Source: Candidatus Saccharimonadota bacterium | GTDB lineage: Bacteria > Patescibacteriota > Saccharimonadia > CAILAD01 > GCA-016700035 | Direction: 5' to 3' | Assembly: GCA_046350755.1 (NCBI GenBank) | Contig: JAXLZV010000001.1 | Span: forward strand, 480,823 to 544,822 | Length of the DNA stretch: 64,000 nt | Part shown: piece after piece, positions 19,097-64,000 of the stretch | How positions within the stretch are numbered: position 1 is the stretch's first letter | Layout of the letters: every line of letters begins with the position of its first letter | The notes under the pieces: model-generated | The model's database searches: none | Told to the model about the DNA's origin: nothing | What the model saw: only the letters and a program-made list of their open reading frames with translations | Translations under genes and position numbers: made by a program

Positions 19097-19256
19097 GTCC
19101 GAAACCAAGGCTTGCACCCGGGGCCAAGCCTATGCTATTGCCGGCACGCTCATAGCGCTAGCAGCAGTCATTGGCGCTGGTCTCTATATCATCGGTCGAT
19201 CAACACCAGAACCAACAGCTAAGCCAAAGGCAACCTCAAAAAGGTCAGCTAAGTAG
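19089..19256 (+). CDS. unannotated small single-TM peptide (55 aa)
   Basis: ATG at 19089 overlaps the TAA of the upstream gene (ATGGCTAA). Encodes MAKSETKACTRGQAYAIAGTLIALAAVIGAGLYIIGRSTPEPTAKPKATSKRSAK and stops at 19254-19256. A GAAGG motif lies 9 nt upstream. Confidence 0.3.
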   Translation: MAKSETKACTRGQAYAIAGTLIALAAVIGAGLYIIGRSTPEPTAKPKATSKRSAK

Positions 19257-44296: not shown

Positions 44297-45496
44297 ATGG
44301 GAATCAGGAGGGTAAGTCTACGAGCACTGATTGCAGTTCTCGTTGGGATGTTCTTCGTCTCGGTTCCCGTTGGTGTGGCCAGCGCAACCGAGGTCAGATC
44401 AGGCGCCAGCTGGAACTGGCGAGCACCTTGGATAGATGCCTATAGCCGCATTGGCGGCGCGACCGCTATTGGCTCTCCGGAGAATACGGTCCACAGCTGG
44501 GCACATGGTTGCTTGCAGGATTACGGCGGCGGTCAATATTTCGACTCCGCCCTAATGTCACCAGGTTGCACTACAGGCCGGGTTTACCCAGTTATCGGTC
44601 AGCACTGGCAGTTCGTCGCAGCAGTCGGCGCCAGTACCATTGGCTATCCGCAAAACGACTCTCATCGCTGGGGAGCGGGGTGGACTCAAGATTTCGACGG
44701 CGGAGACTGGGGACCATCACTACTTATGCGGGGTGATGCCGTAGGGCAGGTCCACGCTGTGCATACTGGCTTTCGGGATTACTACCTATCACAAAGTGGC
44801 CCTGGTGGCTGGCTCGGCTACCCGACTAGCGACGAGTACATCTGGGCAAACAATTCTCGACAAGACTTTCAGGGTGGGTCAATTGTTTGGGCACCGTATC
44901 TTGGCGTCAGGCCCGTCCCCATCTGGAATGAACGCGCTACCTACCACGGAGTCAGTGATCCAACTGTCTATGTAGTTATAAATGGTCGTAGCTACGGCGT
45001 AACCAGTCCAGAGCAACTAACCACTTGCTACGGCGGCTGGGGGCCGGTTCGCTGGATCAGCGATGACGCTACCAATCTCTCACTATCAGCCTACCCCTAC
45101 TCTGGAGCTGCACCCGCATGCATAGCTCCGCGCGAGGCGCATGCGGCAACCTGGGCTCAAGCTCAGCTCGGCCGCACCGACCGCAATGGCTGGTGTGAGC
45201 TGTTTGTCGAAGAAGCCTTCGCAACTCACGGCCGCTATATCTCGGCGGCCGCCCATCTAGCCCAGAAGCGTGCGAGCAATCAGCTTCACGCCGGCGATAC
45301 GGCGGTACCAGTTGGTGCTATCGCCTTCTTCGCCCCAAGTTGGCAAAACGGCTACAATGGGCACGTCATGATATCGATTGGCAATGGTCAATTCGTCAGT
45401 ACTGGCGCGCGCGTCTTCATTACCGGCATCAATCAAACACTGTTTGGTCCTTACGCGGGCTGGACTTACGCCGATAGCACTTGGCCGAGCCGCTAA
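44297..45496 (+). CDS. secreted cell-wall hydrolase with three LGFP repeats and a C-terminal NlpC/P60- or CHAP-like Cys/His domain
   Basis: Signal peptide. LGFP-type repeats G[GA]..IG.P.....W..G..Q.F.GG. C-terminal NGWCELFVEEAF ... NGHVMISIGNG, a Cys...His pair. Confidence 0.6.
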   Translation: MGIRRVSLRALIAVLVGMFFVSVPVGVASATEVRSGASWNWRAPWIDAYSRIGGATAIGSPENTVHSWAHGCLQDYGGGQYFDSALMSPGCTTGRVYPVIGQHWQFVAAVGASTIGYPQNDSHRWGAGWTQDFDGGDWGPSLLMRGDAVGQVHAVHTGFRDYYLSQSGPGGWLGYPTSDEYIWANNSRQDFQGGSIVWAPYLGVRPVPIWNERATYHGVSDPTVYVVINGRSYGVTSPEQLTTCYGGWGPVRWISDDATNLSLSAYPYSGAAPACIAPREAHAATWAQAQLGRTDRNGWCELFVEEAFATHGRYISAAAHLAQKRASNQLHAGDTAVPVGAIAFFAPSWQNGYNGHVMISIGNGQFVSTGARVFITGINQTLFGPYAGWTYADSTWPSR

Positions 45497-45503
45497 TATT
45501 TCT

Positions 45504-45533
45504 CCCCCGTCAGAAATGGCGGGGTATTTTATT
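45504..45533 (+). terminator. rho-independent terminator
   Basis: CCCCCGTCAGAAATGGCGGGG followed by TATTTTATT. Confidence 0.6.
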
Positions 45534-45599
45534 GCCTGTAGTTTCGCTGCCGAACAAAAACCGGGTATACTAGAGACGAAAAGCATTCCTTTCATATAT

Positions 45600-47366
45600 A
45601 TGCAGTCTGATAAATTTACCATCCCTAATCCAAAGCATCTCGAACTTTGGCAGAAGCTTCTGCTAGGTTTCTTGATCGTTGGCTTATCGATATTAGCTGT
45701 CCTAGCAGCAATGCGCATCGCCTACAATGGGCGTCTTTTGCCAGGAACAAAAGCCTACGGCATATATGTCGGCGGCATGACAAAAGCCGATGCAATAAGT
45801 CTTTTGCAACGCGAGACCGATCAATATGTGAGCTCGTCGACCATTATCGTAAACGCCCCGGGAGTAAACCCACTATCCATTCCCGCAAGTGAGGTTGAGG
45901 TTCAATACAATCCCGAAGCTATCGTCGACGAGCTTTATAAGCTCGGACGTGATGGTCAGCTCATGAATCAGCTGAGTGAGCAAGCTCTACTCCTCGTTGG
46001 CGCCCAGCAGCTGCCGACCGGGCAAGTGAGCTATAACCCGTCTAAACTATACGCCACTATTCAGCCCGCTTATGCCGCCCTCAATAAGCCAGCACAAAAT
46101 GCCAATTACGCAATTTCAAAAACCGGCGCACTCATCATTAACCCCGAAAAGTCCGGCCAACGACTCAACCTAGTGGCTTTTATCGGGAATTATGAAGCAC
46201 TCATCACCAACCTCGAACGAGGCGCCACCACCATACAGGCTAAATCACAGGCCGCTGCCATACCAAGTAGTGCTTTAGAATCCAAGCGCAATGCGCTTAC
46301 TCCCTTCATCTCATCACCACTCACACTCACTTATAGCTCAAAGACTTGGAAAATCCCGACCGCCGAGGTGCTGGGCTGGTTGAGTTACTCAGCTCAACAA
46401 GGTCCGGAGAAAAGCGATCTCTTGAATAATTATTACGCAAGCACACGGGTATCGCGAGCCGACGTCGACTTTGATACTGCCCGCATCAGCAGCTACCTTG
46501 GCGTCATTGCTAAAGACGTCAATCAGCCAGCCGTTGATGCCAAGCTTACTATTTCCGGTGACCGAGCCAGCATCTTCCAACAGAGTCAGGATGGTAGGGC
46601 TTTGGATACTGCTACCACATCAAAGACTATTATTGAGAATTTTCGAGCCAGCCAGCCGGCCTCCACTCTACCAGCTACCGTCGTCGTCACGAAGGCTGAT
46701 GTAAATGACAGTAATATCGATCGACTCGGCATTAAAGAATTGCTGTCTGAGGGGGTTACCTATTTCCCAGGCTCGAGCGCAAATCGCATTGTCAACGTCC
46801 GCGTTGGGTCGAGTAAATTCAATGGAGTCCTCCTCAAGCCTGGCCAAGTATTTAGCTTTGGACAACTCTTAGGTGACGTCGGCCCCGAGCAGGGCTATAG
46901 AGAGGGTCGGGTCATCCTGGAGGGCCGTCAGGAGAGTCAGTATGGTGGTGGCTTATGCCAAGTGAGCTCAACGGCGTTTCGAGCGGCCCTACTCGCCGGT
47001 TTACCAATACTTGAGCGCTACAACCACTCATTTGCTGTCAGCTACTACACTGCCCCATATGGCGTTCCCGGAATTGATGCCACTATCTACTATCCCCAAG
47101 TTGATTTTAAATTCCGCAATGACACCGATGCGTATATTCTCATTCAAACCGAGATGGTTGGCACCACTCTAAAATTCCGCTTCTTTGGCACTAAGAAAAA
47201 AGAGGGAGTTATTCGCGGACCAAACTTCATCTATGGATCAAACGACCCTAACCAACCTTCAAAGACCGTGTTCTATCGAGATATTAAGGTCGGAAATACC
47301 GTCGTCAAAACTGATACTTTTTACACGACCTATAAGTCTGCCGCTGATTTTCCAGCAGTCAATTAG
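45600..47366 (+). CDS. VanW family protein
   Basis: Start refined to MQSDKF at about 45600. The track TTG start at 45378 overlaps the upstream gene and its terminator. N-terminal TM. GGGLCQVSSTAFRAALLAGL and the C-terminal YYPQVDFKFRNDTD... are typical of VanW. Confidence 0.65.
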   Translation: MQSDKFTIPNPKHLELWQKLLLGFLIVGLSILAVLAAMRIAYNGRLLPGTKAYGIYVGGMTKADAISLLQRETDQYVSSSTIIVNAPGVNPLSIPASEVEVQYNPEAIVDELYKLGRDGQLMNQLSEQALLLVGAQQLPTGQVSYNPSKLYATIQPAYAALNKPAQNANYAISKTGALIINPEKSGQRLNLVAFIGNYEALITNLERGATTIQAKSQAAAIPSSALESKRNALTPFISSPLTLTYSSKTWKIPTAEVLGWLSYSAQQGPEKSDLLNNYYASTRVSRADVDFDTARISSYLGVIAKDVNQPAVDAKLTISGDRASIFQQSQDGRALDTATTSKTIIENFRASQPASTLPATVVVTKADVNDSNIDRLGIKELLSEGVTYFPGSSANRIVNVRVGSSKFNGVLLKPGQVFSFGQLLGDVGPEQGYREGRVILEGRQESQYGGGLCQVSSTAFRAALLAGLPILERYNHSFAVSYYTAPYGVPGIDATIYYPQVDFKFRNDTDAYILIQTEMVGTTLKFRFFGTKKKEGVIRGPNFIYGSNDPNQPSKTVFYRDIKVGNTVVKTDTFYTTYKSAADFPAVN

Positions 47367-49419: not shown

Positions 49420-49469
49420 ATCCGTCGTATTATACGGGTTTATCGAGAGTTTTTCAAGATATTTTCTCC

Positions 49470-49540
49470 ACATATCCACAAGTGGCCCCAAAACTGTGGG
49501 TGACATGTGGAAAACCCCTTGGCAAAGCCTGTGGAAAACC
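49470..49540. promoter_or_regulatory. DnaA-box cluster in the rpmH-dnaA divergent intergenic region
   Basis: aTATCCACA at 49472-49480, TGTGGGTGA at about 49495, TGTGGAAAA at about 49507 and TGTGGAAAA at about 49530. Each is 7-8 of 9 matches to TTATCCACA or its complement. Confidence 0.6.
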
Positions 49541-51019: not shown

Positions 51020-51335
51020 TTCGGTTTTTGTCCACAGCTTACTTGTGGACAACCTATGGATAACTCCGTGGATAGTGTGTGGAAGAAATGTAGAGAAGCT
51101 GTCGACAACTCCCTTTCCCCTCCCCAGCTTATCCCCCGCGCGAACCGGCTCTTCCCCAGTTCGCGACTTGTCCCCAGTCTTATCCGCAACTGCACACACA
51201 GCTTATCCAGAGTCACACAACGAGCCAATAACAGGTTTAAAATCCGCCCATTATCAACTTATCCCCGCTTTCCACAGCACCCATTACTACCACTACCATA
51301 TAGTTATATAAGTATAAGAAAGAATCGAAGAGGAT
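51020..51335. other. probable oriC: dense DnaA-box array plus an AT-rich unwinding element between dnaA and dnaN
   Basis: At least 8 boxes with 7-8 of 9 matches, including TTGTCCACA, TGTGGACAA, TATGGATAA, TTATCCGCA, TTATCCAGA, TTATCAACT and TTATCCCCG. An AT-rich stretch ccatatagttatataagtataagaaagaa lies at about 51295-51330. Confidence 0.6.
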
Positions 51336-52448: not shown

Positions 52449-53498
52449 ATGCTCAAGCAGCTACATCTGTCGCATTTTCGCTCCTATAGTAGTTTGGAGC
52501 TAGAGCTGTCCGAGCAGGTACTGTTGATTCTCGGCCCGAATGCAACCGGCAAGACGAATATCCTCGAAGCAATGTATGTGGCGGCAACTGGTCGATCGTT
52601 TCGTGGCAATGATGAAGAGCTCGTGCAGCACAGTGCGCCTGGCTTCCGCGTAGATGCCACTCATGACGACGAAGTGATTACGATTACCTACCAGGCCACT
52701 CTTAAGAAAAAAACACTCCAGCGCGACGCTGTGCGCCTGAGCCGTGCTACCCTACTAGGACGTCATCCGGTCGTGCTGTTTGAACCAAATGATTTATTAT
52801 TACTTTCCGGCCCACCAGAGCGTCGCCGTCGCTACCTCGACCTGATTCTTGCTCAGACAGATAGCCAGTATCGTCGAGAACTCCAACTCTATAAGCGCCT
52901 ACTGAGACAACGTAATGCCCTCCTCTGGCGGAATCGACGCGACACGATTAGCCGGCTTGATGATCAGCTTTTCATCCTTGAGACCCAGATGGCTGGGCCG
53001 GCTGAGAATATTTCTCAAGCGCGGGTTGAGTTCATTCGCCAGCTCACGCAGCTACTGAATGAACTAGTTGGTCGCATCTCAGAGAGGTCCCATAGCCTGG
53101 CGGTGCATTTTAGTGAAAAGAGTTCAGATATCTTAACTCGTTATCAAGAGCGACGAGAGCGAGACATAGTGCTTGGTACGACATCAGTTGGGCCACATCG
53201 CGAAGATTGGACTATCGAGTTTGATGGTCATCCCCTAACCGCGACTGCTTCACGCGGCGAGGTGCGGACGACACTTCTGGCTCTGAAATTAGCTGAGCTT
53301 GATTATGTGCGGGCTCATACACAGGGAGGCGCCCCGACTCTCCTGCTAGACGATGTCTTTAGTGAGCTCGATGAAGCTCGTCGGCGCGCTTTGATCCGTG
53401 AGCTCGATGCGGTGCAGACGATCATCACCAGTACTGATATCGATCGTCGCCTCAAGCTACCCGCTCAGACGCTCGATCTCACGAGGCCGAGTTCATGA
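52449..53498 (+). CDS. recF: DNA replication and repair protein RecF
   Basis: Walker A GPNATGKTN and the SMC-like signature. 349 aa. Confidence 0.9.
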   Translation: MLKQLHLSHFRSYSSLELELSEQVLLILGPNATGKTNILEAMYVAATGRSFRGNDEELVQHSAPGFRVDATHDDEVITITYQATLKKKTLQRDAVRLSRATLLGRHPVVLFEPNDLLLLSGPPERRRRYLDLILAQTDSQYRRELQLYKRLLRQRNALLWRNRRDTISRLDDQLFILETQMAGPAENISQARVEFIRQLTQLLNELVGRISERSHSLAVHFSEKSSDILTRYQERRERDIVLGTTSVGPHREDWTIEFDGHPLTATASRGEVRTTLLALKLAELDYVRAHTQGGAPTLLLDDVFSELDEARRRALIRELDAVQTIITSTDIDRRLKLPAQTLDLTRPSS

Positions 53499-53767
53499 GT
53501 TTTGAAAGGCTTGGCGACGCCCTGAATCGTAAGGATATTGATCAGCATGAGGATCTGCTGGCTTTCTTTGATCTGGCGAAATCAGTGATTGCTCGTCGCA
53601 GTGGCGTGAAAGTCGATGCGGTGAGTTTTAAAAATGATATTTTGCGTATCGCGGTATCGCACCCGGTTGAAGCTAGCGAGATTCGCTTACGTCACATACA
53701 GATAGAGCGTGAAATTTCCAAAAAATCCGGACGTAAGCTCGAGCGGTTACAGGTCCGCGTTTTATAA
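53495..53767 (+). CDS. DUF721 (DciA-like) protein
   Basis: 90 aa reading MSFERLGDALNRKD... ATGA overlap with the recF stop, in the usual post-recF position. Confidence 0.65.
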   Translation: MSFERLGDALNRKDIDQHEDLLAFFDLAKSVIARRSGVKVDAVSFKNDILRIAVSHPVEASEIRLRHIQIEREISKKSGRKLERLQVRVL

Positions 53768-55090
53768 CTTAAGCTGATATATTTTACCAACCAAACCTTC
53801 TCCGAGCGTATAGGTACTGACAGTTAATGAGTTATTAATCTTGTCGAAGTACGCATCATATACGCCAACGTTACTGTAGTTAAAAGTGGCTTGCTTGATG
53901 GCTATCTGAGTCTGAGAGTCGTAAATCCAGATCGCACCTTTTTCGACGTAGCTCAGCTTGGTATTGCTGACCCAGCGGATAGAGTTATTCTCAGCTCCGG
54001 TTTGGGCGAGCACGGTAGTAATGTTGCCAGTATTGATATCGAGGATATGTACGGTTTGGTCGGTAATAAAGGCGAGCTTATTGCCGTCGAGAGACCAGCT
54101 AGAGCCCTCCTCTGTCGTCGCGTCTTTATCGGTGATTTGCTGGACGGTTTTTCGGTTTTTCACATCGTAGATACTCATCTTCAGTGGCTCGCGTGGAGTT
54201 TCCTTTTGGTTAGGTTGATTATCGACAACCCCTTCTTCGCCGATAGTTATTTCCGGCTGTGAAAAGAGTACGATCAGGCCGTTTTTAGACAGAGTAAAAC
54301 TCGAGTTAATGCTTTGGCCGTCAATCTGGATTTCTTCTGCATATTCGTCTGTCGAGCCCTGATAGTAGAGCTTATCGAGGTGACGCATGACTCGATCGCC
54401 ATTTTCATTGACGGCAATGTCATCGATCGAGAGCGTATCCGCTTCACCGCCGGGACCTTCTTCTGCAGCTTCTTTCGGATCGTTGGCGGGGGCCTCTTTT
54501 AGGCGGATTCCAAAGCTTGTGACGACTCCCCCGGGACTGAGCTTGTAGCTATTGTTAGTAGTGTCGCGGAAATAACCGAGGCCGTACTGCACCCAGTCAA
54601 GCTGAGTAATCGTATAGTCTTCGATGTAGGGTGCCCCCTCAGTTTGCGCATCGGGAATCGTGTAGATCGATTGGAAAGGAATATTGAGAAACTCTACCTT
54701 TGCGCCCTCGGTGACGATATCTTTCGCCTGGTAGTTGGCATACTCGCTGAGGTTCTGCGGATTAGTGAGATCAAGGGTGGTTTTTTGGGTTTGTCGAGCT
54801 TCAAGCTTTGTTGTGTAGCAGCTTTCTGCAGAGTCTGCCGAAGCAGTAATGGTATAGTCTCCAGGAGGCAGGCGCTTATCGACCTTCCCTTTGCCGATAA
54901 CTTCAGCCGATTGATTTTTTCGATTGACGATTGTCAGCTTAGCATTTGGTTGGTTAGTCTGAATGATGACGCGGCCAGTCGTGAAGTATTCGTAGATGAA
55001 TTGCGCGAGCAGGATGAGTAGGATTACCCCAGCTAGTCCAAGGATGATTCGGATGATGAGTGTGCGGTTGAGGGTTATAGTGGGCTGCAT
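53762..55090 (-). CDS. membrane-anchored secreted protein with a PEGA-like Ig domain and a PD40/TolB-like beta-propeller
   Basis: N-terminal TM, then LPPGDYTITAS (PEGA-like), then a beta-propeller-like C-terminus (SWSLDGNKLAF...). It is the last gene of the T4SS-like operon, 3 nt from the upstream gene. Confidence 0.45.
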   Translation of the reverse strand: MQPTITLNRTLIIRIILGLAGVILLILLAQFIYEYFTTGRVIIQTNQPNAKLTIVNRKNQSAEVIGKGKVDKRLPPGDYTITASADSAESCYTTKLEARQTQKTTLDLTNPQNLSEYANYQAKDIVTEGAKVEFLNIPFQSIYTIPDAQTEGAPYIEDYTITQLDWVQYGLGYFRDTTNNSYKLSPGGVVTSFGIRLKEAPANDPKEAAEEGPGGEADTLSIDDIAVNENGDRVMRHLDKLYYQGSTDEYAEEIQIDGQSINSSFTLSKNGLIVLFSQPEITIGEEGVVDNQPNQKETPREPLKMSIYDVKNRKTVQQITDKDATTEEGSSWSLDGNKLAFITDQTVHILDINTGNITTVLAQTGAENNSIRWVSNTKLSYVEKGAIWIYDSQTQIAIKQATFNYSNVGVYDAYFDKINNSLTVSTYTLGEGLVGKIYQLKL

Positions 55091-55093
55091 AGT

Positions 55094-56986
55094 TTACTCC
55101 GGTAATTTCGCAAATGCTTGAATGAGTATCGGCTGTGGATTTATGAGGGTGGCGCATTGCGCAGCACAGTTATCGCGCCCTCGACTAAAGCCATTTGGTA
55201 CCGGGCTAATATCGAAGTGTAAGTGTGGGCCGGTATTTTGTGCATCGGCGGCGGTGCCAACTACTCCAATAGCTTGCCCGGCCTGAACGACATTCCCTTT
55301 GTTCGCCTTATTCGAACCCTGTGGCATATGGGTGTAGAAGTACCATTTACCATCATTGCCGCGAATTCTCATATTTTGCCCATTTTTACTTGAGTAATTA
55401 CTCCCTTCGACGACTCCTCCGACCGCTGCCACGACCTCAGTACCAGTTGGAGCACCGATGTCGGCGGCATTATAGTCGTGGTGACAATTCGCCTGACTGG
55501 TATAACACCACTTAACTGGTGAGGCGTTCTTGATAGCTGTTTTAGTTGTTTTAAGCGGGAAGATAAAACCATCAGCGCTCACGCCGAGCCCACCAGCTTG
55601 GCCAGTTGTGGTCGCGATGGTTCCAGCTGCTATACAGTCTTGTCCGACTGCTGTAGCAGGTGCGGCAGCACCAATTCCACCCTGCAAGCTCAGATAAAAC
55701 GGTATCGCGCGGGTGATATAATTTTGCGTTTCTTTAGGAAGATTGGCGAGAGTATTCGCACCGGCAATCCGTCCGCCACCAGCATTGTAGGCTATGAGTA
55801 CGGTTACGACTGATGGATTAATGCTGTTTGGTCGTTCAATACTACCGACGGGAATACCGGCCTTACCACCACTATTGGCGATGTAGTTGGCAGCCCCGAA
55901 GGCGGCATCGGTAAGGTCTTGGATATCTTTTACTCCATCGCCATTGCCGTCTTGACCACTCGAGGCCCAAGTGGAGTTGAGGAATTGAAATGGCCCATTT
56001 GCCCCTTTATTCGAGCTGGCCCAGGCCTTGCCAGTGCCATATGGTGGTGGAGGATTTGGAAAGCCGCCCCCGTGCTCGATCCAGAAAATGGCTGTCAGGA
56101 TGCCAACATCGGTGCCAAATTTCGCCGCCGCTTTAGGGAAAATTGAGCGATACGGCTCGGGAATACTGGCGGGTAAGCTGGTGAGTGTACCGGTTGCCGC
56201 TGGGTCGGCCGGTTGAGCGGCGACATCGGTATTCGGTGGGGTCGAGCCACTGAATGTACTGTAGAGTACGACGCTATTAACGACCAGCTCAGCGAGGGCT
56301 TTATAGCCTGCAGCATCTGTGTGTACTCCATAGCTCGTTATCGGAAAAGCTGTCGTGGTCGGTGTCAGATTCTGTGGATCGGCCGTTGGGGCAATGAGTT
56401 TTGACCAGCTAATGACTTTATAGCCGAGGGATTGATTACTATAGATAGTCTTATTGACTTGTGAGTAAGCAGCTTGGTTATCTGAAGAGTAAACATCGAC
56501 CCAGAGCAGCTGGGCATCGGGGTTGATGCCACGGATTTTCTGAATCAATTGCGATTGTAGGGATGAAAAATTATTCTCGAGATTAGTGCCTAACTCGATC
56601 ACGATATACTTTGCTGATTTTACAAACTCCGTATCAGCGGTCACAGCATCAAGTCCACTCGGGGCGGCACTCTGCCCTCCCCTTTGAATACCTCGTGACG
56701 TAGCGACATTTAGTCGTGGAGTAAAGCCTTTCGAGCTGAACATACTTTCTATCCCGGCCGACTGCATACCAACGCCAATTGAATCACCCAGCAGGTATAC
56801 CGGCCCAGGGCCACCGGCTCCACGTCCTACCTGTTCATCGACGCCGCCAAAGCCACACAGCTCAGCATATTTATCGTAAAAAGGATAGCGTTCAATTCCC
56901 TGTCTTTGCTCGGAAGCCGCTAGGGCTGCAGTCGGTGAAAAGAATAGCGCCGCCAGAGTTATGAGCGTGAAGAGTTTTTTCATCAT
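55094..56986 (-). CDS. secreted triple-domain peptidoglycan hydrolase: SGNH/GDSL esterase, lytic transglycosylase (SLT) and M23 peptidase
   Basis: Signal peptide. VYLLGDSIGVG (GDSL) with a later DxxH-like motif. IEHGG...GANGPFQFLNSTW (SLT catalytic Glu plus the GxxQ motif). HHDYNAADIG...GPHLHFDIS (M23 HxxxD and HxH). Confidence 0.65.
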   Translation of the reverse strand: MMKKLFTLITLAALFFSPTAALAASEQRQGIERYPFYDKYAELCGFGGVDEQVGRGAGGPGPVYLLGDSIGVGMQSAGIESMFSSKGFTPRLNVATSRGIQRGGQSAAPSGLDAVTADTEFVKSAKYIVIELGTNLENNFSSLQSQLIQKIRGINPDAQLLWVDVYSSDNQAAYSQVNKTIYSNQSLGYKVISWSKLIAPTADPQNLTPTTTAFPITSYGVHTDAAGYKALAELVVNSVVLYSTFSGSTPPNTDVAAQPADPAATGTLTSLPASIPEPYRSIFPKAAAKFGTDVGILTAIFWIEHGGGFPNPPPPYGTGKAWASSNKGANGPFQFLNSTWASSGQDGNGDGVKDIQDLTDAAFGAANYIANSGGKAGIPVGSIERPNSINPSVVTVLIAYNAGGGRIAGANTLANLPKETQNYITRAIPFYLSLQGGIGAAAPATAVGQDCIAAGTIATTTGQAGGLGVSADGFIFPLKTTKTAIKNASPVKWCYTSQANCHHDYNAADIGAPTGTEVVAAVGGVVEGSNYSSKNGQNMRIRGNDGKWYFYTHMPQGSNKANKGNVVQAGQAIGVVGTAADAQNTGPHLHFDISPVPNGFSRGRDNCAAQCATLINPQPILIQAFAKLPE

Positions 56987-59900
56987 CTAGTCTCCATGCC
57001 CGATACTTGGACAATAGAGGAAGGTCGGTAGTCGATATTGATTCTCGATGCGCACGTGGAAGTGATTATCGTGATTGACGAGTGACTGCATTTTAAAGTT
57101 CACACCCTTCTGCTGCGCGTAGGTATTTGAGGCATTGATAACGTATGGATCATTAAAGAAGATATTGGTGACGATCCCGGTATCGACAAACATCTTGGCG
57201 AGTTCGAGGGTTTTTTCGCGCGAATAGCCCGGTCGCGGGATGTCAGCTACCCATTCATTGCCAACCCGTCCATCGAGGTCGACATCAACACCATTCTTAT
57301 GAGAAGCGTGCCCATCGGACGTAATTTCACCTATTTGTAAGTAGCCGTTAGGATATGTTTTTCTAAACTGCTGCGCTACTGTATAGATCATATCGATCAT
57401 CGCTTTATTGCCGCACATATCCCATTCTTGGCCAAAGCCAGTACCATTATCCCCGTCATAGATATATGAGCCGTCGACCGACCGAGGGAGCTTGTATGAG
57501 CCATTTGATTCGACCGGCCCGAGGTTGGGTGGTGAAATGAGGCCGGTGATAGTGGATCCTGTGCCCGTCCCTCCGGTCGCAGGAGCAGGACCTTCACCTG
57601 GTAGTGACGAATTGGCGTTCAGGCTGGTATCCTCTTTATCTGGATTTGATAGGTAGACCAGAGCATCGGCTTGCAGGTTGTAGAAGTGGTAGGCACCATA
57701 TCGAGTCTCGAGACTGTTGAGATTAGGGCTATTTGTGCTCTCAAACAGAGGCTTACAGTACTTGTCATACAGATCTTTTTTATCATCATCGGGGTATAGG
57801 AGATGGAAGCGACTCGGAATGAATTCCCGGTAGCAGAGCTCATAGTAGTAGAACTTCTGTAAGAGATCGGGGCGAGCCAGCTTTAAGCCTTCGATGAAGC
57901 GGGCATTTTGGACGGGGTCTATTTGACTGTAGATCTCCGGGATGCCGGCTGGATCAAGCTTGAGATTTTGGGAGTCGTATATCGAGGCGGCCATGGCGAC
58001 GCGTGATTTACCAGTCAGTAAAGCAGCAATGGTCCCCCGCTCGCCAGCTAGGTTGCGGATCGGACTAGCAACTGTTGCGATGACTGAGCCAACATTGCTG
58101 GCGACTTTTTGAGGCTTATCGGTGAAGGCAACGCGCAGACGACTCGTTAGTGAGCCGGGATTTTCTAGGTCAAACAGTCGGTAAGCCAGTCCCCGAGTTT
58201 GTTCGTCATAACTGCGAGCTAATTGAATAGATTCATCACGGGCGACAGCCTCGTTATTGGTGAGGAACTTACCACCCATGGCGAGTGATATGCCGTTCAT
58301 GTAGGCCTTCATACCGAAGTTCATGCGGTTGAAGTTTTGAGGACCATCTTCCGTGCCGGCAGTCGCAACGTTTGATTCGAGTCGGGTAGCTCGAAACAGA
58401 ATATCTTCATAGGTGAGATTATTATAGATCTGACTAATCGATTGAGATTTTTCTGGTCGAGAATAGTAATCGATGCTGGCCATCGCCTTTTTAAATATCG
58501 GATAGGCGTCATTCCAGAAGGCATTAGTGGCTTGAATCGAGGCCGGTGAGCTGTACTGACTCTTGTCTTGAGCAGCTTCACAGGGGCTCAGTCCATTTAC
58601 TGGTCGATTGACGTAGGCGAAGATTGCATCTAGCCCTTTTGTATATTGATCATCAATCTGTAATAGATTTTTGTCGCCAGTTGAATTATAGTAACCGACG
58701 ATTCTTGATACGGCATCAGGTTCGATAGCGATGCCGGTCGCTCGCCCGTCTAAGCTGTGATTGTATTCCTGCCCCGACTGCATGCCGGCAATCTTATAGA
58801 AGTCCTTATTTAGCTCATTAATATTGAGAAAACGCGCACGATTTGTATCGGCGTACGTCACTGCCTGCCAGCCAGCCACTGCTGCTGAGTTGATGCGATT
58901 CTTCACGCGAGCCCGATAGGTTTTTGTGGCTTCGGCTTCTGGCTTGAGGAGTCGATCGTAGAGATCGCAGACTGTATTGAGAGCTGCGCGCTTTGGTCGA
59001 ATCGCCAAGTCAGGATTTGGGTCATTAGCTGTCGATTCATCAGGGAGGGTTGTATAGAGTAAGAGATTTTTTGGTTCGATACCGCATTGGAGATCGTGAT
59101 TCATCTTATCGACGTCCTTATCCCAAAACTTGTCACCTTGTGGAACATAATTATTCGCGCAGTCGATAATGTCCTGACTATAGAGCCCTGCTGAGTATTT
59201 CTGCACACTTCTAGTACCGCCGAAAAATTCAAGCACTGCATCATCACTCGCTTTTACTTGTTCGGGTGTGGCTTGGCCGGCGACCTCATATTTACCACCA
59301 CGATTCCAGATGCGAGTCAGGGTTTTTTCACGCAGGGCTTTTTGAAGCTCAGAAGGTGGTTTATCGAGGTTGGCTGATTCTTCTGGCTCGGCATAGGCAT
59401 AGCGAACATTAAGATTCTTATTAACGCCATCGCGCACGAATTGGGAGCGCATCATCGCGTTGAAGATTGGGTATGAGTTGTTGATGCAGTTCGCGCGCGC
59501 CACCCCATCGAGCTCCTTACCGGGGTTAGTATTGAGTTGGATAGACTCGATGACGGAGCGTTTTTTGCCATCGACTGTTGAGACTACCTCTTTGGTCTTA
59601 ATTACACAGCGACTGTCATTTGGTAGGGTTTGGTATTTGGCCTTCTCCCAATCGATTTGCGAAAGCTTGTACTCATAAGTATCGATCGCCGGCTTCGCCG
59701 CAATGGCAGTTGCCGCAACGGCCGTCGGCGTGCCGGGCTTAACATCTACTTCGTAGGCAAGCTTACCAGCGCCACCATAGCTAATAACCGCCCCAACCAT
59801 ACCACCGATACCAGCTTTCATACCTGCCCAACCTAAGCTCAAGATGGCGCGCGGGTTATCCCAAGCGAAGAAGATAACCAGGAAGAAGATAATTATCGGC

Positions 59901-60457
59901 AGGAATGAGAGGAATATACCGAAAAAGATAATGTAGAGCCAGTAGCTTTGTTTGAATTTCTTGCCAGTTATCTTCTGAACGCCGGCCTCTACGGCATTTT
60001 TGGCCGCGACTACGGCGGTACCGATACCGGTTTTTGAAGCGGCGGCCTCGCCAACCTTGACCCCAGCTTCGAGCGCCGCTTCTCCCTTACCGTCTTCGCG
60101 AGCGGTGCGGCGGACATCATCTATCTCGCGTTTGGCGTTGAGGCCCTTTGTGGCGGATTTACCGATGGCACCACTGATCGATTTATTGGCTGCCTTAGTT
60201 GCTTCTCCACTGGTCTCATTAGCGATCTTAGTAGCTTCGCCACCTTTATTGGCAACCTTGGTAGCCTCCCCGCCTGTATTGGCGGTCTTAGTGGCTTCGC
60301 CGCCCTTACTGCTTCCGCCAGTATTGGTGGGGGTTGTACCGCCGCGGGCTTGGTCGGCGAATGATCCGCCGCTATTGGGTCCACCTGGCTTTGGCGCTTC
60401 GCGATAGTGTCGCCGTTGACCGTCCGAATGTATTGCTTCGTCCACCCTCCAGATCAT
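56987..60457 (-). CDS. VirB6-like polytopic protein (1,156 aa) with N-terminal GGEATKxAN repeats and a C-terminal LAS/M15-like zinc-peptidase domain
   Basis: Four tandem 11-aa KxGGEATKxAN repeats (DNA at about 60175-60320). TM helices YWLYIIFFGIFLSFLPIIIFFLVIFFAW and GWAGMKAGIGGMVGAVISYGG. A large extracytoplasmic region. C-terminal SDGHASHKNGVDVDLD ... NHDNHFHV (H-x6-D and H-x-H). Confidence 0.55.
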   Translation of the reverse strand: MIWRVDEAIHSDGQRRHYREAPKPGGPNSGGSFADQARGGTTPTNTGGSSKGGEATKTANTGGEATKVANKGGEATKIANETSGEATKAANKSISGAIGKSATKGLNAKREIDDVRRTAREDGKGEAALEAGVKVGEAAASKTGIGTAVVAAKNAVEAGVQKITGKKFKQSYWLYIIFFGIFLSFLPIIIFFLVIFFAWDNPRAILSLGWAGMKAGIGGMVGAVISYGGAGKLAYEVDVKPGTPTAVAATAIAAKPAIDTYEYKLSQIDWEKAKYQTLPNDSRCVIKTKEVVSTVDGKKRSVIESIQLNTNPGKELDGVARANCINNSYPIFNAMMRSQFVRDGVNKNLNVRYAYAEPEESANLDKPPSELQKALREKTLTRIWNRGGKYEVAGQATPEQVKASDDAVLEFFGGTRSVQKYSAGLYSQDIIDCANNYVPQGDKFWDKDVDKMNHDLQCGIEPKNLLLYTTLPDESTANDPNPDLAIRPKRAALNTVCDLYDRLLKPEAEATKTYRARVKNRINSAAVAGWQAVTYADTNRARFLNINELNKDFYKIAGMQSGQEYNHSLDGRATGIAIEPDAVSRIVGYYNSTGDKNLLQIDDQYTKGLDAIFAYVNRPVNGLSPCEAAQDKSQYSSPASIQATNAFWNDAYPIFKKAMASIDYYSRPEKSQSISQIYNNLTYEDILFRATRLESNVATAGTEDGPQNFNRMNFGMKAYMNGISLAMGGKFLTNNEAVARDESIQLARSYDEQTRGLAYRLFDLENPGSLTSRLRVAFTDKPQKVASNVGSVIATVASPIRNLAGERGTIAALLTGKSRVAMAASIYDSQNLKLDPAGIPEIYSQIDPVQNARFIEGLKLARPDLLQKFYYYELCYREFIPSRFHLLYPDDDKKDLYDKYCKPLFESTNSPNLNSLETRYGAYHFYNLQADALVYLSNPDKEDTSLNANSSLPGEGPAPATGGTGTGSTITGLISPPNLGPVESNGSYKLPRSVDGSYIYDGDNGTGFGQEWDMCGNKAMIDMIYTVAQQFRKTYPNGYLQIGEITSDGHASHKNGVDVDLDGRVGNEWVADIPRPGYSREKTLELAKMFVDTGIVTNIFFNDPYVINASNTYAQQKGVNFKMQSLVNHDNHFHVRIENQYRLPTFLYCPSIGHGD

Positions 60458-60460
60458 GTA

Positions 60461-62386
60461 CTAGACTCCCGGTGCCGTTCCGGACGCACCCGGTTCGTAC
60501 TGATTAGCTACCTGACTCGCATCGGCCACCCCAACAGTTCCCTGCTGGACTGCCTCCTCGGTGTTCTCAAGCCGTGATTGAGCATTTTGCATATCGCGTT
60601 CGAGTAATACCTGTGGGTTGGTGGTAATGAGCTGCTCTTCCATCGGGCTGGCAAGGATGCGGATAACAACGTGGTTTGAACCAGCAAAGAATAGCCCTTC
60701 ACCGACTGGGAACTGACTGAGGCGAGATTTTTCTTCGCTCGTTAGTTTGAAGGTTTCAGCGACGATATCGGCGGCTGATGGTGCTTGCTTGAGCAGTAGT
60801 TGCAGCGAGCTATTATTGACGACGGCTCGACCGAGTCGGTCTGACAGGAAGTCTTCTACGTCTTGTGAGATGGTGGTCAGTCCGAGGTAATACTTACGGG
60901 CACGCTTAGCAATCGAGAACATAAATGAAGCTGAGTCGGGGTGCTTCATGAGCTGCCAGGCCTCGTCGACGGCTAGGATTCGCCTGCGCTTATCAGTTTT
61001 TACGCGATTCCAGATGTAATTGAGGGTGATATACATACCGATCGGGCGTAGTTCATCCTCGAGGTCGCGGATATTAAAGACCACAAACTTATTATTTAGC
61101 TGAACATTTGACTGCTGAGAGAAGATACCTGAGAAGGTACCTTCGGTATAGCGGCGTAGCCGCGAGGCGATTTGTGGGCCGCTACCACCCATCGTGATGA
61201 GCGTGTTGTAAAGGTCACTCATAACTGGTGGCTGACTGCGGTGTGTGAGTGGGTCGTTCGTGATCCCCTTTTGGGCGTAGGTATTGATGAGGGCGAGGTC
61301 GAGATCTGATTCTTCGGCCGCCGAGAGCTCACCACACATTAGACGAATCAGGCCGTGTAGCATGATGATGTTGGCGCGCAGGGCATTATCAGCTTCTTCG
61401 GGGTCGATGACGATCGGGATGTCGAATGGATTGATGCGTGTATTGCTGGCTAGGGAGAGGTGTACGAAGCTCCCGCCGACAGCATCGCAGAGCGTGCGGT
61501 ATTCGTTTTCTGGGTCGATGATGATAACATCGGTGCCCATCATCAGCGATCGCAGGCATTCTAGTTTGACGGTAAAACTCTTACCGGCACCAGACTTAGC
61601 AAAGACCACCATATTAGCGTTTTCTAAGCTGAAACGGTCAAACAGGACGAGACCATTATTATGACGGTTGAGGCCGTAGAGGACTCCTTCATTGCGTGAT
61701 AGCTCAGCTGAGGTGAATGGGAAGCTGGTTGAGAGCGAGCCGGTATTCATATTCCGGTAGATGCCGAGCTGATCAGTACCGATCGGCAAGGTAGAGTTGA
61801 AGCCTTGCTCCATCTGAACGGTGGCAGGCTTGGTGTATACCAGGCTTGTGCCTAGAATGGACTCAATCTTCCGCTGGATAAGGTCGAGCTCCTCAACATC
61901 CTTACCATAGACTGTTAGGTAGAGGCCAAAGCGGAAGAAGCGCTCTTCACCAACTTGGAGTTTGTCGCGTAATTCTTCAGCATCGCCGATGGCTGCTTCA
62001 AGACCCGGATCACGAATCTTACCCTTTTCGGCATTGATCTGCACTGAGGCCTCGAGCTGACCAACTTTTTTCTTGAGGTTCTCGAGAACAACCCGACTTT
62101 CGACCGGCATAATATTGAGCGAGATATCGATGATCTCATCGAGATTGATAATTGGTGACAGCCAACCAGTGAAGAGAGTCCGTGGGTAGCCGTAGACGAA
62201 GAGAGTGCGGACGTAGCGCGTACCGACGATAAGATAATTATTCTCGATGGTGAATGAGCTCGGAGCAATAATGTCGCGCAGAGTTAAGATGCCTTCGCGG
62301 TAGGCCCGTTCGGCTTCCTGTTGCTGAGCCGCTGCCATATCAACAGCTGCTTGCTGAGCTGGATCGACTTTTGGTTTGCGGGCCAT
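60461..62386 (-). CDS. type IV secretion ATPase, VirB4/TraE/PrgJ-like (Gram-positive type)
   Basis: Walker A VFAKSGAGKSF (DNA at about 61567-61611) and Walker B ILAVDEAW. N-terminal pattern Y.R.LFVYGYPRTL..GWL typical of TraE/TcpF-type VirB4. 641 aa. Confidence 0.85.
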   Translation of the reverse strand: MARKPKVDPAQQAAVDMAAAQQQEAERAYREGILTLRDIIAPSSFTIENNYLIVGTRYVRTLFVYGYPRTLFTGWLSPIINLDEIIDISLNIMPVESRVVLENLKKKVGQLEASVQINAEKGKIRDPGLEAAIGDAEELRDKLQVGEERFFRFGLYLTVYGKDVEELDLIQRKIESILGTSLVYTKPATVQMEQGFNSTLPIGTDQLGIYRNMNTGSLSTSFPFTSAELSRNEGVLYGLNRHNNGLVLFDRFSLENANMVVFAKSGAGKSFTVKLECLRSLMMGTDVIIIDPENEYRTLCDAVGGSFVHLSLASNTRINPFDIPIVIDPEEADNALRANIIMLHGLIRLMCGELSAAEESDLDLALINTYAQKGITNDPLTHRSQPPVMSDLYNTLITMGGSGPQIASRLRRYTEGTFSGIFSQQSNVQLNNKFVVFNIRDLEDELRPIGMYITLNYIWNRVKTDKRRRILAVDEAWQLMKHPDSASFMFSIAKRARKYYLGLTTISQDVEDFLSDRLGRAVVNNSSLQLLLKQAPSAADIVAETFKLTSEEKSRLSQFPVGEGLFFAGSNHVVIRILASPMEEQLITTNPQVLLERDMQNAQSRLENTEEAVQQGTVGVADASQVANQYEPGASGTAPGV

Positions 62387-63351
62387 TAGACTCCCCCTCC
62401 AACTAATGGATTCTGTGGTGGGGCCGGCGGCGTTGGTGGGATTTGCTGAGGTGGTACGACTGGTGCTGGCTGGGCGGCCGTCGGTGGTGCCGACACCGGA
62501 CTCGACGCCTGGCTCCCAACGCCGTTACGCATGCCGCTGGTGTACATATCGTCTGGCTCAGGCTCAGGAGTTGCGTTATAGCTTCCATCTGGTATTGGCG
62601 GGTCATCCCCGCGCATAACAACCGGCGTAGTCATCTGATCGATGTCGACGAGATTTTGATTGACTGCTTCGTCTTGATTGTAAGCGGTGTAGAAGAGTTC
62701 GGTGATTTCCTGAGTGCTTAAGACGGCAGCTCGGATACCCATCTGAGCAAGCCCTTGCGCCACGAGGTTGGTGCGTTGAATCAGATCGCGTTTGCGCTGC
62801 TCAAACATCTCGGTTGTCTGTGTCTCATCAGAATTACTCTTAAATAAATCAGCCAGCTTAACGCCAGCGTTGTCGCGCTTCTTGCCTTTGAGCTCGAGAT
62901 AATACGGAACGACAATGTAGAACTCCTTGTTCATAATGTTGACCTGCTCGAGGAGACCGCGAATATTGTAGATGTAGTCTTCCATTAGCCCGGCAATCAA
63001 CGGATTTTCCTGGTTGGCTTGGAGGACCTCTAGGTTGTCGAGATAGTTGTCGAGCTCGAGCTTACGACTCCGGACGATGATTTGGATCGGAAAGTGGAGG
63101 CCGTTGAGAAAGCCCTGATAGGCATACTCGATAGCATCTTGCTCTTGGGGCGACTTGAGGTCGAAATTCAAGGCGCTACCGAGAATGATCATACGCAAAG
63201 AACCATCACGCATCACCACGATCCCGTCTTTAATCTCGGTAAACATCAGGTGGTTTTGCGTACTGGCACGCTGATCCTTCACGTCCTTAGGCGGCGTGAT
63301 GGATTTCGTAAATTCAGCTTGTTCGGGCGTCTGGGCAGCTTGATCTGCCAT
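62386..63351 (-). CDS. T4SS-associated protein of unknown function with a Pro-rich C-terminus, translationally coupled to virB4
   Basis: Start refined to the ATG (MADQAAQ) at 63351, which has a GGTAGGTG RBS. The track GTG at 63363 directly follows an in-frame TAG. Its stop and the virB4 start overlap as TAATG at 62384-62388. The N-terminal segment IKDGIVVMRDGSL...IVRSR is reminiscent of VirB4/TrbE N-terminal domains, but this is unverified. Confidence 0.45.
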   Translation of the reverse strand: MADQAAQTPEQAEFTKSITPPKDVKDQRASTQNHLMFTEIKDGIVVMRDGSLRMIILGSALNFDLKSPQEQDAIEYAYQGFLNGLHFPIQIIVRSRKLELDNYLDNLEVLQANQENPLIAGLMEDYIYNIRGLLEQVNIMNKEFYIVVPYYLELKGKKRDNAGVKLADLFKSNSDETQTTEMFEQRKRDLIQRTNLVAQGLAQMGIRAAVLSTQEITELFYTAYNQDEAVNQNLVDIDQMTTPVVMRGDDPPIPDGSYNATPEPEPDDMYTSGMRNGVGSQASSPVSAPPTAAQPAPVVPPQQIPPTPPAPPQNPLVGGGV

Positions 63352-63400
63352 AGGAGATAACACCTACCTTGTAATTAGTCTGTTTTAGAGACATCCATCC

Positions 63401-63423
63401 CCTGCAAGTAAATGACTTGCAGG
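63401..63423. promoter_or_regulatory. perfect 9-bp inverted repeat (CCTGCAAGT-n5-ACTTGCAGG) in the T4SS-operon upstream region
   Basis: Palindrome about 25-45 nt upstream of the first operon gene. A candidate operator. Confidence 0.4.
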
Positions 63424-63445
63424 TAGTGACGAATATATCATCATA

Positions 63446-63508
63446 CCAAAAAGAGACAGTTCACTGGAGGTATTCCACTGTCTCTTTATTTTGGTAGTTG
63501 GTTTTTTA
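63446..63508. terminator. bidirectional rho-independent terminator-like hairpin
   Basis: AAAGAGACAGT-n16-ACTGTCTCTTT is a perfect 11-bp stem. It is flanked by an AAAAA run on the low-coordinate side (read as TTTTT on the minus strand) and by the T-rich stretch ATTTTGGTAGTTGGTTTTTT on the high-coordinate side. Confidence 0.6.
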
Positions 63509-63529
63509 TAAGAACTTTTTGGTTGCGGC

Positions 63530-63991
63530 CTAGCGAACCTGTACACTTTCGCCGGCCTGTAACTGGCCGCGGCTGGCTACCTGCGCCACCTGAGCGACGC
63601 TCAAATGCGAGGCATCCATAACCTTTTTCAGTATAGCATTATCGGGTGTTGCCTGGGAGGTCTGAGCGGCGGTTTGTGGGGCTGGAACATCGGGGTTATT
63701 GAGCTGCTCCGTCATCTGTTGGCGAGCTTGTTCACGAATATCATGCTCGACGTTTTGGAGCATCTCCCCTACCCGCTGAGCTTGGGGAGCATTTTCGGCT
63801 TGAGCGATGACATCATCGCTGACTTGCATATCCTCGGCAGGCAGGATGGTTTTGGTAAGTTCGTCGGGCGTGAAGACACGTTCTGAAAATTGTGCCGCCC
63901 GATTCGTCTCGTCTGGGAGTTGAATCGACTCTGGCTTGGCATGGCCACGAGTATCGACGACGAGTGAGATCTGCTGGAGACGGCTGCGCAC
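63530..63991 (-). CDS. hypothetical acidic/Gln-rich protein, probably N-terminally incomplete at the window edge
   Basis: The reading frame stays open to the window edge (codons LDH precede the track's GTG). No recognisable domain. Confidence 0.3.
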   Translation of the reverse strand: MRSRLQQISLVVDTRGHAKPESIQLPDETNRAAQFSERVFTPDELTKTILPAEDMQVSDDVIAQAENAPQAQRVGEMLQNVEHDIREQARQQMTEQLNNPDVPAPQTAAQTSQATPDNAILKKVMDASHLSVAQVAQVASRGQLQAGESVQVR

Positions 63992-64000
63992 GTGGTCTAA

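Follow-up and report, generated by a model that had tools for sequence, protein, structure and literature searches.

A putative chromosomal type IV secretion gene cluster converging on recF in a Saccharimonadia bacterium

The gene cluster and its chromosomal setting

The analysis of a 64,000-nucleotide stretch of contig JAXLZV010000001.1 from a Candidatus Saccharimonadota bacterium, referred to at its full length as the window, outlined a minus-strand gene cluster that very probably represents the promoter-distal two-thirds of a conserved chromosomal type IV secretion system (T4SS) of the Saccharimonadia (Saccharibacteria/TM7, Patescibacteria). Its last gene (53762-55090) encodes a membrane-anchored PEGA/beta-propeller-type protein of 442 amino acids (aa), and is preceded on the same strand by genes for a secreted SLT_2 and M23 peptidoglycan hydrolase in the putative VirB1 role (55094-56986; 630 aa), a membrane-anchored scaffold with a C-terminal LAS-type peptidase (56987-60457; 1,156 aa), a VirB4-family T4SS ATPase (60461-62386; 641 aa) and a TrsD/TraD-like protein (62386-63351 from an ATG start, 321 aa, or up to 63363 from a GTG start, 325 aa). 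The first four of these open reading frames (ORFs) are separated by 3, 0 and 3 nt, and a 1-nt stop/start overlap joins the 641-aa and 321-aa ORFs, through which the trsD-like gene is predicted to be translationally coupled to virB4. A structured intergenic spacer with no assigned strand (63364-63529) lies between the trsD-like gene and the 3' part of a minus-strand prgI gene, which encodes a PrgI-family, VirB3-like protein (156 codons, 63530-63991, running to the window end at 64000). The initial annotation of this region had described six tightly packed genes, which holds for the five ORFs between 53762 and 63363 and fails for the sixth, located 166-178 nt apart and truncated.

The 641-aa protein matches the NCBIfam profile of the CD1110-family VirB4 (NF045971) at 376.8 bits, with a cut-off of 325, as well as PF19044 (P-loop_TraG; E = 9e-26) and the structure of the VirB4 C-terminal domain (PDB 4AG5; E = 3e-52). 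AAA_10 and DUF87 also exceed their Pfam thresholds. The VirB4 call of the initial annotation thus survives the hidden Markov model validation that had been named as a check on it. The alignment to NF045971 covers positions 184-732 of 752 and, because the match begins only at position 184, the protein appears to lack the N-terminal domain, comprising some 180 residues, of a full-length VirB4. The VirB4 alignment shows no variation at its Walker A (GAGKS) and Walker B (DE) positions. A search for homologues yielded at least 8,000 scored candidates, all with E <= 1e-10; the best 120 are 74-100% identical to the window protein, and the few named homologues among the matches listed belong to Candidatus Saccharibacteria or to an unclassified 'bacterium'.

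The 321-aa protein matches the TrsD profile NF041427 at E = 5e-4. Its orthologues match TrsD in 59 of 59 cases (best E = 2.5e-10) and the CD1110 VirB4 profile in 51 of 59, and a trsD-like orthologue adjoins virB4 in all 80 related loci described below; searches of PDB sequences with the 321-aa protein and with the TrsD-like profile returned nothing useful. These matches point to a free-standing TrsD-like relative of the VirB4 N-terminal domain, the part that the 641-aa protein lacks. The gene had previously been annotated as a 322-aa accessory protein coupled to virB4, a description of which the coupling is retained and the accessory label given up. In a few metagenome-assembled genomes (MAGs), the orthologues of the TrsD-like protein or of the VirB6 candidate introduced below contain in-frame stops (L009, 9013-9840; L087, 9052-10053; L023, 4952-7780; L039, 4995-7862; L043, 3210-5957), which may reflect assembly errors, pseudogenes or recoding.

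Two further sequences extend the cluster beyond the window. A contig found via the exact VirB4 sequence (L001) is 100% identical to window positions 59739-64000 and runs 4.7 kb further, and a 92.6%-identical relative (L006) spans 10 kb upstream of virB4. The sixth ORF, which has no stop before the window end, is the 3' part (156 codons) of a PrgI-family gene. L001 contains this gene in full, with a product of 278 aa; since this truncated prgI runs off the window, the cluster has no upstream end inside it. The full PrgI gene in L006 matches PF12666 at 52.7 bits (cut-off 27, residues 5-95), and two to three transmembrane segments are located within residues 20-71. Upstream of prgI, L001 carries a gene for a 1,035-aa polytopic protein, followed by a divergent VirB2-like pilin gene. 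This pilin gene is the first of four T4SS_pilin/TrbC genes in L006, all of them outside the window and scoring 45-77 bits on PF18895 (cut-off 26.6), and past them L006 encodes a solute-binding protein, HSP20 and a phosphoribosyltransferase. Between residues 281 and 492, the polytopic protein (1,031 or 1,035 aa, also outside the window) contains six or more hydrophobic segments, and it is a candidate for an extended VirB6. Taken together with these contigs, the complete cluster would run from four divergent VirB2-like pilin genes through an extended VirB6-like polytopic protein of about 1,030 aa, PrgI, the TrsD-like protein, VirB4, the 1,156-aa LAS-peptidase scaffold and the SLT and M23 hydrolase to the PEGA/beta-propeller anchor protein, ending against the convergent dciA-like gene, recF, dnaN and dnaA.

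The position of prgI also bears on the spacer that separates it from the trsD-like gene. The operon had been proposed to start at about 63.5 kb, with a promoter of its own, a palindromic operator and an upstream terminator. The palindromes as such are present, in the form of a hairpin with an 11-bp stem followed by a U-run on the minus strand (63450-63487) and of a second hairpin with a 9-bp stem (63401-63423). A consensus scan of positions 62900-64000 detected no minus-strand promoter-like site and no canonical terminator, and the spacer lies inside the cluster since prgI precedes it, so the proposed start is not upheld. The spacer RNA folds better than shuffled controls (z = -3.28). In relatives with an overall identity of 92.5-94.6%, the spacer retains 98% identity and is thus better conserved than the coding DNA on either side of it. 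One compensatory change from T-A to G-C is present in the L006 version of the hairpin at 63401-63423. More distant relatives have only a short gap between prgI and trsD (median about 33 nt), so that the long spacer is specific to this lineage. Possible functions of the spacer are those of an internal attenuator, terminator or operator.

The conservation of the gene order, which the initial annotation had proposed to check, was surveyed using one genome per GTDB species. This survey returned at least 584 loci, and the counts that follow are those of the best 80, all from MAGs labelled as Saccharibacteria, Saccharimonadia, Patescibacteria group or unclassified bacterium. The TrsD-like gene and virB4 are present together in 80 of the 80 loci, PrgI in 70, the VirB6 candidate in 56 and pilins in 45, and recF lies convergent and directly downstream in 58, with the counts below 80 being partly due to contig ends. 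The recurring order comprises HSP20 and divergent pilins, a VirB6-like protein, PrgI, the TrsD-like protein, VirB4, three to five variable genes and convergent recF-dnaN-dnaA. Median amino acid identity across these loci (L009-L088) is 64% for VirB4, 43% for DnaA, 40% for DnaN and 38% for RecF. A compositional test of horizontal origin had been proposed as well. The GC content, 4-mer distance and GC content at third codon positions of the T4SS genes fall within the range of the window itself, and their relative synonymous codon usage correlates with r = 0.80, with the fifth percentile of controls at 0.75; none of these four measures gave a signal of foreign origin.

These data are relevant to the possibility that the T4SS genes belong to an ordinary integrative and conjugative element (ICE), or to a decaying remnant of one, with its relaxase, VirD4 and integrase lying just outside the window. 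VirB4 does find its best match in NF045971, an ICE-type model named after a gene of a conjugative element, and the order of VirB4, large membrane protein and cell-wall hydrolase resembles the modules of ICEBs1 and Tn916-type elements. Domain searches, which covered window ORFs of at least 110 aa with Pfam and about 8 kb past position 64000, nevertheless detected no relaxase, type IV coupling protein (T4CP) or integrase domain, either in the other 54 kb of the window or in the extension; neither region contains a T4SS-DNA_transf, TraG-D_C or TrwB-type match, and the P-loop_TraG match is VirB4 itself. The initial annotation had reported none of these three functions in view and had allowed for their presence just beyond 64000, where L001 and L006 show instead prgI, the VirB6-like gene and pilins and, further on, the genes for the solute-binding protein, HSP20 and the phosphoribosyltransferase. 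On the basis of these two contigs, an ICE immediately past the window end is rejected. The recurrence of the cluster at a fixed place next to recF, in 58 of the 80 species-level genomes, the native base composition and codon usage, the stronger conservation of VirB4 than of DnaA and the absence of a tRNA or direct-repeat boundary at the cluster further argue against this explanation, which is scarcely credible. As far as gene content and comparison can tell, the cluster appears to be an ancient, vertically inherited and strongly constrained chromosomal system, and no recent mobile element. Given the lack of linked conjugation genes, the conserved locus and the native composition, the earlier description of a chromosomal apparatus rather than a conjugative element is endorsed.

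The window also encodes a PIF1/AAA_30-type helicase of 511 aa (24387-25922, minus strand), which has no relaxase domain and represents a module shared with relaxase-helicases.

Several points weigh against the interpretation of the cluster as a chromosomal T4SS of this type. The VirB6 candidate is based on topology and on weak TrbL matches in 5 of 38 orthologues (best E = 0.0025), a PDB search with its profile returned no match, and no VirB8-like gene was identified in the cluster. Another part of the genome could hold a relaxase or T4CP gene, and Patescibacteria often carry a distant virD4 homologue (PMC12102498). The system is known in this genome from its genes alone, and what is proposed below on its substrate and direction of transport is inference throughout.

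To the left of the cluster, the window contains rpmH, rnpA, yidD, yidC and jag on the minus strand, followed on the plus strand by dnaA, dnaN, recF (52449-53498, with SMC_N and AAA_23 matches) and a 90-aa DciA-like ORF (53495-53767). The latter is a weakly supported call, with a PF05258 match (E = 0.01, 16.5 bits) below the cut-off of 24. The T4SS operon is convergent with recF and the DciA-like ORF, and the 3' ends overlap by 6 nt. DnaA-box-like 9-mers were found at four sites in the rpmH-dnaA spacer (49464-49538) and at five in the dnaA-dnaN spacer (51028-51211), and the cumulative GC skew is lowest at about 52 kb; these DnaA-box clusters and the skew minimum place the cluster near oriC. The location beside recF-dciA and close to the origin given by the initial annotation is hence corroborated, with the dciA part weakly supported.

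The entire T4SS operon (53762-64000) is transcribed toward the origin (about 49.5-52 kb) and head-on to the rightward replication fork. This orientation is kept in the 58 of 80 related genomes with convergent recF and T4SS genes and in Southlakia epibionticum, and is unusual for a long operon with an essential orthologue.

Relation to described secretion systems

A T4SS of closely similar organization has been reported in Southlakia epibionticum. Wang et al. (2023, Cell; PMC10633639) described in this species an "apparent T4SS (SEML1_0006-0019)" that is closest to Gram-positive conjugative systems and contains essential pilin genes without recognizable coupling or relaxase proteins, and transposon sequencing identified its T4SS orthologues as essential for epibiotic growth. 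In the supplementary tables of that work (PMC10633639, Tables S1/S2), SEML1_0001-0003 correspond to dnaA, dnaN and recF, 0004 to a prealbumin-like protein, 0005 to a PEGA protein, 0006 to a lysozyme-like hydrolase, 0008 to VirB4, 0009 to a 293-aa protein, 0010 to PrgI, 0011 and 0013 to large membrane proteins, of which 0013 matches TrbL/VirB6, 0014-0019 to pilins and 0020 to Hsp20, with nearly all of the genes listed for SEML1_0001-0020 called essential.

Judging by gene order and content, the window cluster and SEML1_0004-0019 of Candidatus Southlakia epibionticum ML1 appear to be one and the same system. The two loci agree in order and orientation, with dnaA, dnaN and recF on one strand and the T4SS genes converging on them from the other. 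Common to both are a PEGA-type protein, a multi-domain hydrolase, a membrane protein of roughly 1,100 aa with a DD-peptidase fold at its C-terminus, VirB4, PrgI, a protein in the range of about 290-320 aa encoded between these two, and a large VirB6 candidate, followed by divergent VirB2-like pilins and Hsp20, and neither includes a relaxase or coupling protein. S. epibionticum, for its part, encodes two small proteins (0004 and 0005) where the window has a single 442-aa PEGA and beta-propeller protein, its hydrolase combines lysozyme-like and cysteine peptidase domains instead of SLT and M23, and it carries two large polytopic proteins (0011 and 0013), whereas the window lineage has one upstream of prgI. 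The NTF2-like protein 0012 has no equivalent in the window lineage, which presents four pilin genes (in L006) instead of six and, unlike S. epibionticum, the 166-178-nt structured spacer between prgI and the trsD-like gene.

A similar picture emerges from the survey of 2,474 Patescibacterial virB4 genes by Quinonero-Coronel et al. (2025; PMC12102498), which form a monophyletic clade related to MPF-FATA. In that survey, TrsD is the most abundant partner, accompanied by PrgI/VirB3, VirB6, VirB2 arrays and M23-domain hydrolases; relaxases are near-absent, T4CP genes are rarely linked to virB4, and dnaA, dnaN, rnpA and rpmH are enriched in its vicinity (PMC12102498). A 2025 review repeats these points (PMC12857230). 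The window cluster shares with the surveyed systems the MPF-FATA-related VirB4, the TrsD-like protein, PrgI, a VirB6 candidate, the VirB2-like array, the hydrolases, the lack of a relaxase and the proximity to dnaA, dnaN, rnpA and rpmH, and differs from them in nothing essential.

Profile and homologue matches suggest that the cluster belongs to the monoderm-type (MPF-FATA-like) class of T4SSs. Like the systems of this class (Trs of pGO1/pSK41, Tra of pIP501, Prg of pCF10, ICEBs1/Tn916 and the C. difficile CTn), it encodes a CD1110-family VirB4, PrgI/VirB3 and membrane-anchored multi-domain hydrolases in the role of PrgK, TraG or CwlT, together with a separate TrsD/TraD-like protein as found in pGO1 and pIP501. 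Unlike them, it is chromosomally fixed and vertically inherited, without a relaxase, T4CP, oriT context or integrase. A VirB8-like gene was likewise not found in the cluster of the window lineage, which does possess VirB2-like pilins that are absent from monoderm conjugation systems (PMC12102498; PMC12857230).

T4SSs that operate without a T4CP, such as ComB of Helicobacter pylori, the archaeal Ced system and Ptl of Bordetella, share with the window cluster a VirB4-type ATPase and, as a candidate in the window lineage, a VirB6-like channel in the absence of a coupling protein and relaxase. ComB mediates DNA uptake, Ced DNA import and Ptl toxin export. These systems differ in envelope architecture and accessory proteins, and the window cluster does not belong to them at the sequence level, with VirB4 matching the CedB profile weakly, at 43.9 bits against a cut-off of 700.

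Relaxase-free Saccharibacterial T4SSs located near dnaA have thus already been published and are ordinary for the Saccharimonadia (PMC10633639; PMC12102498; PMC12857230). The novelty that had been implied for the arrangement in the window is consequently withdrawn, since each of its unusual-looking features has already appeared in print, and the window adds no new kind of system.

Cell-wall hydrolase modules downstream of virB4

In every related locus, the gene directly after virB4 encodes a protein of 800-1,300 aa, and at least one hydrolase gene and PEGA-type genes come next. The proteins encoded after virB4 in these loci are only 11-17% identical to the window copies. The genes keep their position and general function and swap cell-wall-hydrolase modules, even among close relatives.

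The 1,156-aa protein, first in this series, had been annotated as a polytopic VirB6-like protein. Hydropathy analysis revealed a single hydrophobic stretch (residues 171-206), which separates a low-complexity cytoplasmic N-terminus from a large, mostly helical ectodomain ending in a C-terminal LAS-type (MepA/M74-like) zinc peptidase at residues ~1016-1140. No TrbL/VirB6 match was detected in the Pfam scan or in the domain scan of the family of proteins encoded at this position. On topology, domain content and family analysis, the VirB6 identity of this protein is therefore rejected. The Pfam M74 match of the window sequence is sub-threshold (E = 1.6e-4), and a PDB sequence search with the protein itself returned nothing useful. 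The profile of its positional family weakly matches LdcB/VanY structures in the PDB, and C-terminal domains recognized in this family include VanY (8), GDSL (4) and M23 (3), as well as lysozyme, CHAP, amidase and NlpC/P60. An AlphaFold2 (AF2) model of the protein, with a predicted local distance difference test (pLDDT) score of 50, was too poor for fold assignment; its one useful signal, a weak one, was a C-terminus resembling MepA (PDB 1U10 and 1TZP; Foldseek probability 0.99, E values of at least 0.14).

Comparison with closely related proteins locates the variation at the C-terminus. Along its entire length, MepA-like end included, the window protein shares 56% identity with P0122. With P0124 it shares 55% over residues 16-977 and no similarity thereafter, as P0124 ends in VanY. 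The same holds for the wider set, in which P0123-P0139 end in VanY and the window copy and P0122 in a MepA/M74-like domain, on first ~980 residues that are about 55% identical in both groups. This pattern suggests that the C-terminal peptidase module (window positions 56987-57550, ~180 codons) has been exchanged between close relatives. The protein also appears to be the positional counterpart of the essential SEML1_0007, which has 1,113 aa and a C-terminal Hedgehog/DD-peptidase fold annotated (PMC10633639).

The 630-aa protein presents an M23 endopeptidase domain at residues 506-594 (PF01551; 60 bits, cut-off 28.7), a lytic transglycosylase SLT_2 domain at residues 322-411 (PF13406; 38.7 bits, cut-off 24.3) and a signal peptide with an N-terminal hydrophobic segment at residues 4-25. 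These two above-threshold domains bear out its annotation as a multi-domain peptidoglycan hydrolase in the VirB1/CwlT role. At the equivalent position, related genomes encode phage-tail lysozyme (28), M23 (10), amidase_3 (7), amidase_2 (3) and glucosaminidase, SLT_2, CHAP and NlpC/P60 domains (5 each). Predicted peptidoglycan-cleaving domains are hence encoded in the operon by both the 630-aa and the 1,156-aa genes, that of the latter being clear across its family.

The last gene of the cluster encodes a 442-aa protein with an N-terminal transmembrane helix at residues ~9-37 (hydrophobic segment 5-38), a PEGA/CarboxypepD_reg-like beta-sandwich at residues ~38-109 (CarboxypepD_reg 23.1 bits, below the cut-off of 32.3) and a weak beta-propeller signal at residues ~305-404, consisting of sub-threshold PD40 and WD40-type matches. 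Its description as a membrane-anchored PEGA/beta-propeller protein is maintained on this basis, with the helix seen directly and both domain assignments sub-threshold. A word-indexed search gave only one homologue, and an AF2 model was for that reason built from the single sequence; with a pLDDT of 40, it shows the transmembrane helix followed by beta strands and is too poor for fold assignment. An exhaustive HMMER search retrieved 264 distant relatives, typically of 390-550 aa and 22-30% identical, and PEGA or CarboxypepD_reg domains recur at the position of this gene in related loci. The protein is probably fast-evolving, with the essential PEGA/prealbumin-like proteins SEML1_0004/0005 as its counterparts in S. 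epibionticum.

Cell-wall-related proteins are also encoded elsewhere in the window, where a VanW and PG_binding_4 protein (45378-47366) and an LRAT/NlpC-like membrane protein (8770-9921) are both located on the plus strand.

Putative transport roles and other loci in the window

Saccharibacteria are very small bacteria that grow on other bacteria, and a T4SS cluster beside the replication origin appears to be carried by all of them. This T4SS is the first to be shown essential for its own carrier bacterium, and what it transports and in which direction bears centrally on the way of life of Patescibacteria on a host. In the mechanism proposed here, PrgI, the TrsD-like protein and VirB4 would constitute a membrane-associated motor energizing the VirB6-like channel, the two operon hydrolases would cut the cell wall, whether that of the bacterium or that of its host, for the machine to assemble or to span it, and a VirB2-type pilus would reach an Actinobacteria-type host cell. 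Macromolecules would then be moved without a coupling protein or relaxase, the lack of which implies a process other than conjugation. The role of the system has been called "completely unknown", and both effector delivery and the uptake of host molecules have been proposed (PMC11665869; PMC12857230). Uptake of host material (nucleic acids or nutrients), along the lines of ComB or Ced, is here tentatively preferred; effector export is a possible but less favoured direction, and a system serving mainly for adhesion or as a pilus appears improbable.

In its most explicit form, uptake would be the task of a dedicated machine, either a 'feeding tube' or a ComB/Ced-like importer, taking in host nucleic acids or building blocks through the VirB2-type pilus and the VirB6 channel. 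The lack of a T4CP and relaxase in the cluster parallels the ComB and Ced importers (PMC12857230), and Saccharibacteria are devoid of de novo nucleotide, amino acid and fatty acid synthesis (PMC11665869; PMC12857230). In addition, ComEC-dependent competence is dispensable and the T4SS essential (PMC11665869; PMC12857230), and host RNA acquisition, with possible T4SS pili at the parasite-host interface, has been reported in another Patescibacterium (bioRxiv 10.64898/2026.06.21.733656). The weak similarity of VirB4 to CedB points the same way but, being far under the cut-off, amounts to generic P-loop similarity; most T4SSs export, moreover, and there is no direct evidence of import by any Patescibacterial T4SS. 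A dedicated importer may thus be entertained as a conceivable, if unconfirmed, form of the system.

Export is the usual direction of T4SSs, and the delivery of effectors was raised both by Wang et al. (PMC10633639) and in a PNAS perspective (PMC11665869). In that case, the cluster would deliver proteins to the interior or the surface of the host, for instance toxins, cell-wall enzymes or factors that manipulate it, and would recruit them with no linked T4CP, as do Bordetella Ptl or Brucella VirB, and the operon does encode secreted, rapidly diversifying hydrolase modules. These hydrolases, however, have Sec-type signal peptides or membrane anchors and hence need no T4SS, no effector candidates or recognizable secretion signals were identified, and the distant T4CP homologue of S. 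epibionticum is non-essential (PMC12102498). A dedicated effector exporter is, on balance, rather unlikely.

A third possibility is that the cluster serves mainly for attachment, by means of an adhesive VirB2-type pilus and a remodelled cell wall, with no substrate translocated. The divergent multi-gene pilin array that adjoins the cluster, the essentiality of such arrays in S. epibionticum (PMC10633639; PMC12102498) and the abundance of cell-wall enzymes in the operon are consistent with this role. The very strong purifying selection on VirB4 and its intact ATPase motifs nonetheless speak against such a role, and type IV pili already provide these bacteria with adhesion and motility (PMC11665869; PMC12857230), which makes a mainly adhesive function quite improbable.

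Returning to uptake, a broader and speculative proposal, unlikely as it stands, is that the T4SS would be a conduit feeding host macromolecules to the epibiont, with swapped hydrolase modules that match the cell-wall chemistry of the host and help set host range. The modules in question would be the MepA-like or VanY C-termini carried on 55%-identical scaffolds, along with the lysozyme, M23, amidase and CHAP domains of the next gene. The conservation of VirB4, the swapping of hydrolase modules and the origin-facing orientation of the operon are comparative details that may guide experiments on the system.

Two other features of the window lie outside the cluster. A giant ORF of 3,095 aa (29125-38412, plus strand) combines NHL repeats or a six-bladed beta-propeller, at least four fibronectin-III domains and a C-terminal HATPase_c domain (histidine-kinase ATPase), and its product may be a surface adhesin or sensor. 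No other region departs as far from the window mean in tetranucleotide distance, and the GC content here, 0.45-0.48, is nearly the lowest in the window, with lower values only in the first 3 kb. The window also encodes a trehalose synthase (TreT-type glycosyltransferase; 19249-20463, minus strand) and a trehalase (38432-39691, minus strand), which together form a possible trehalose cycle in this reduced-genome bacterium.

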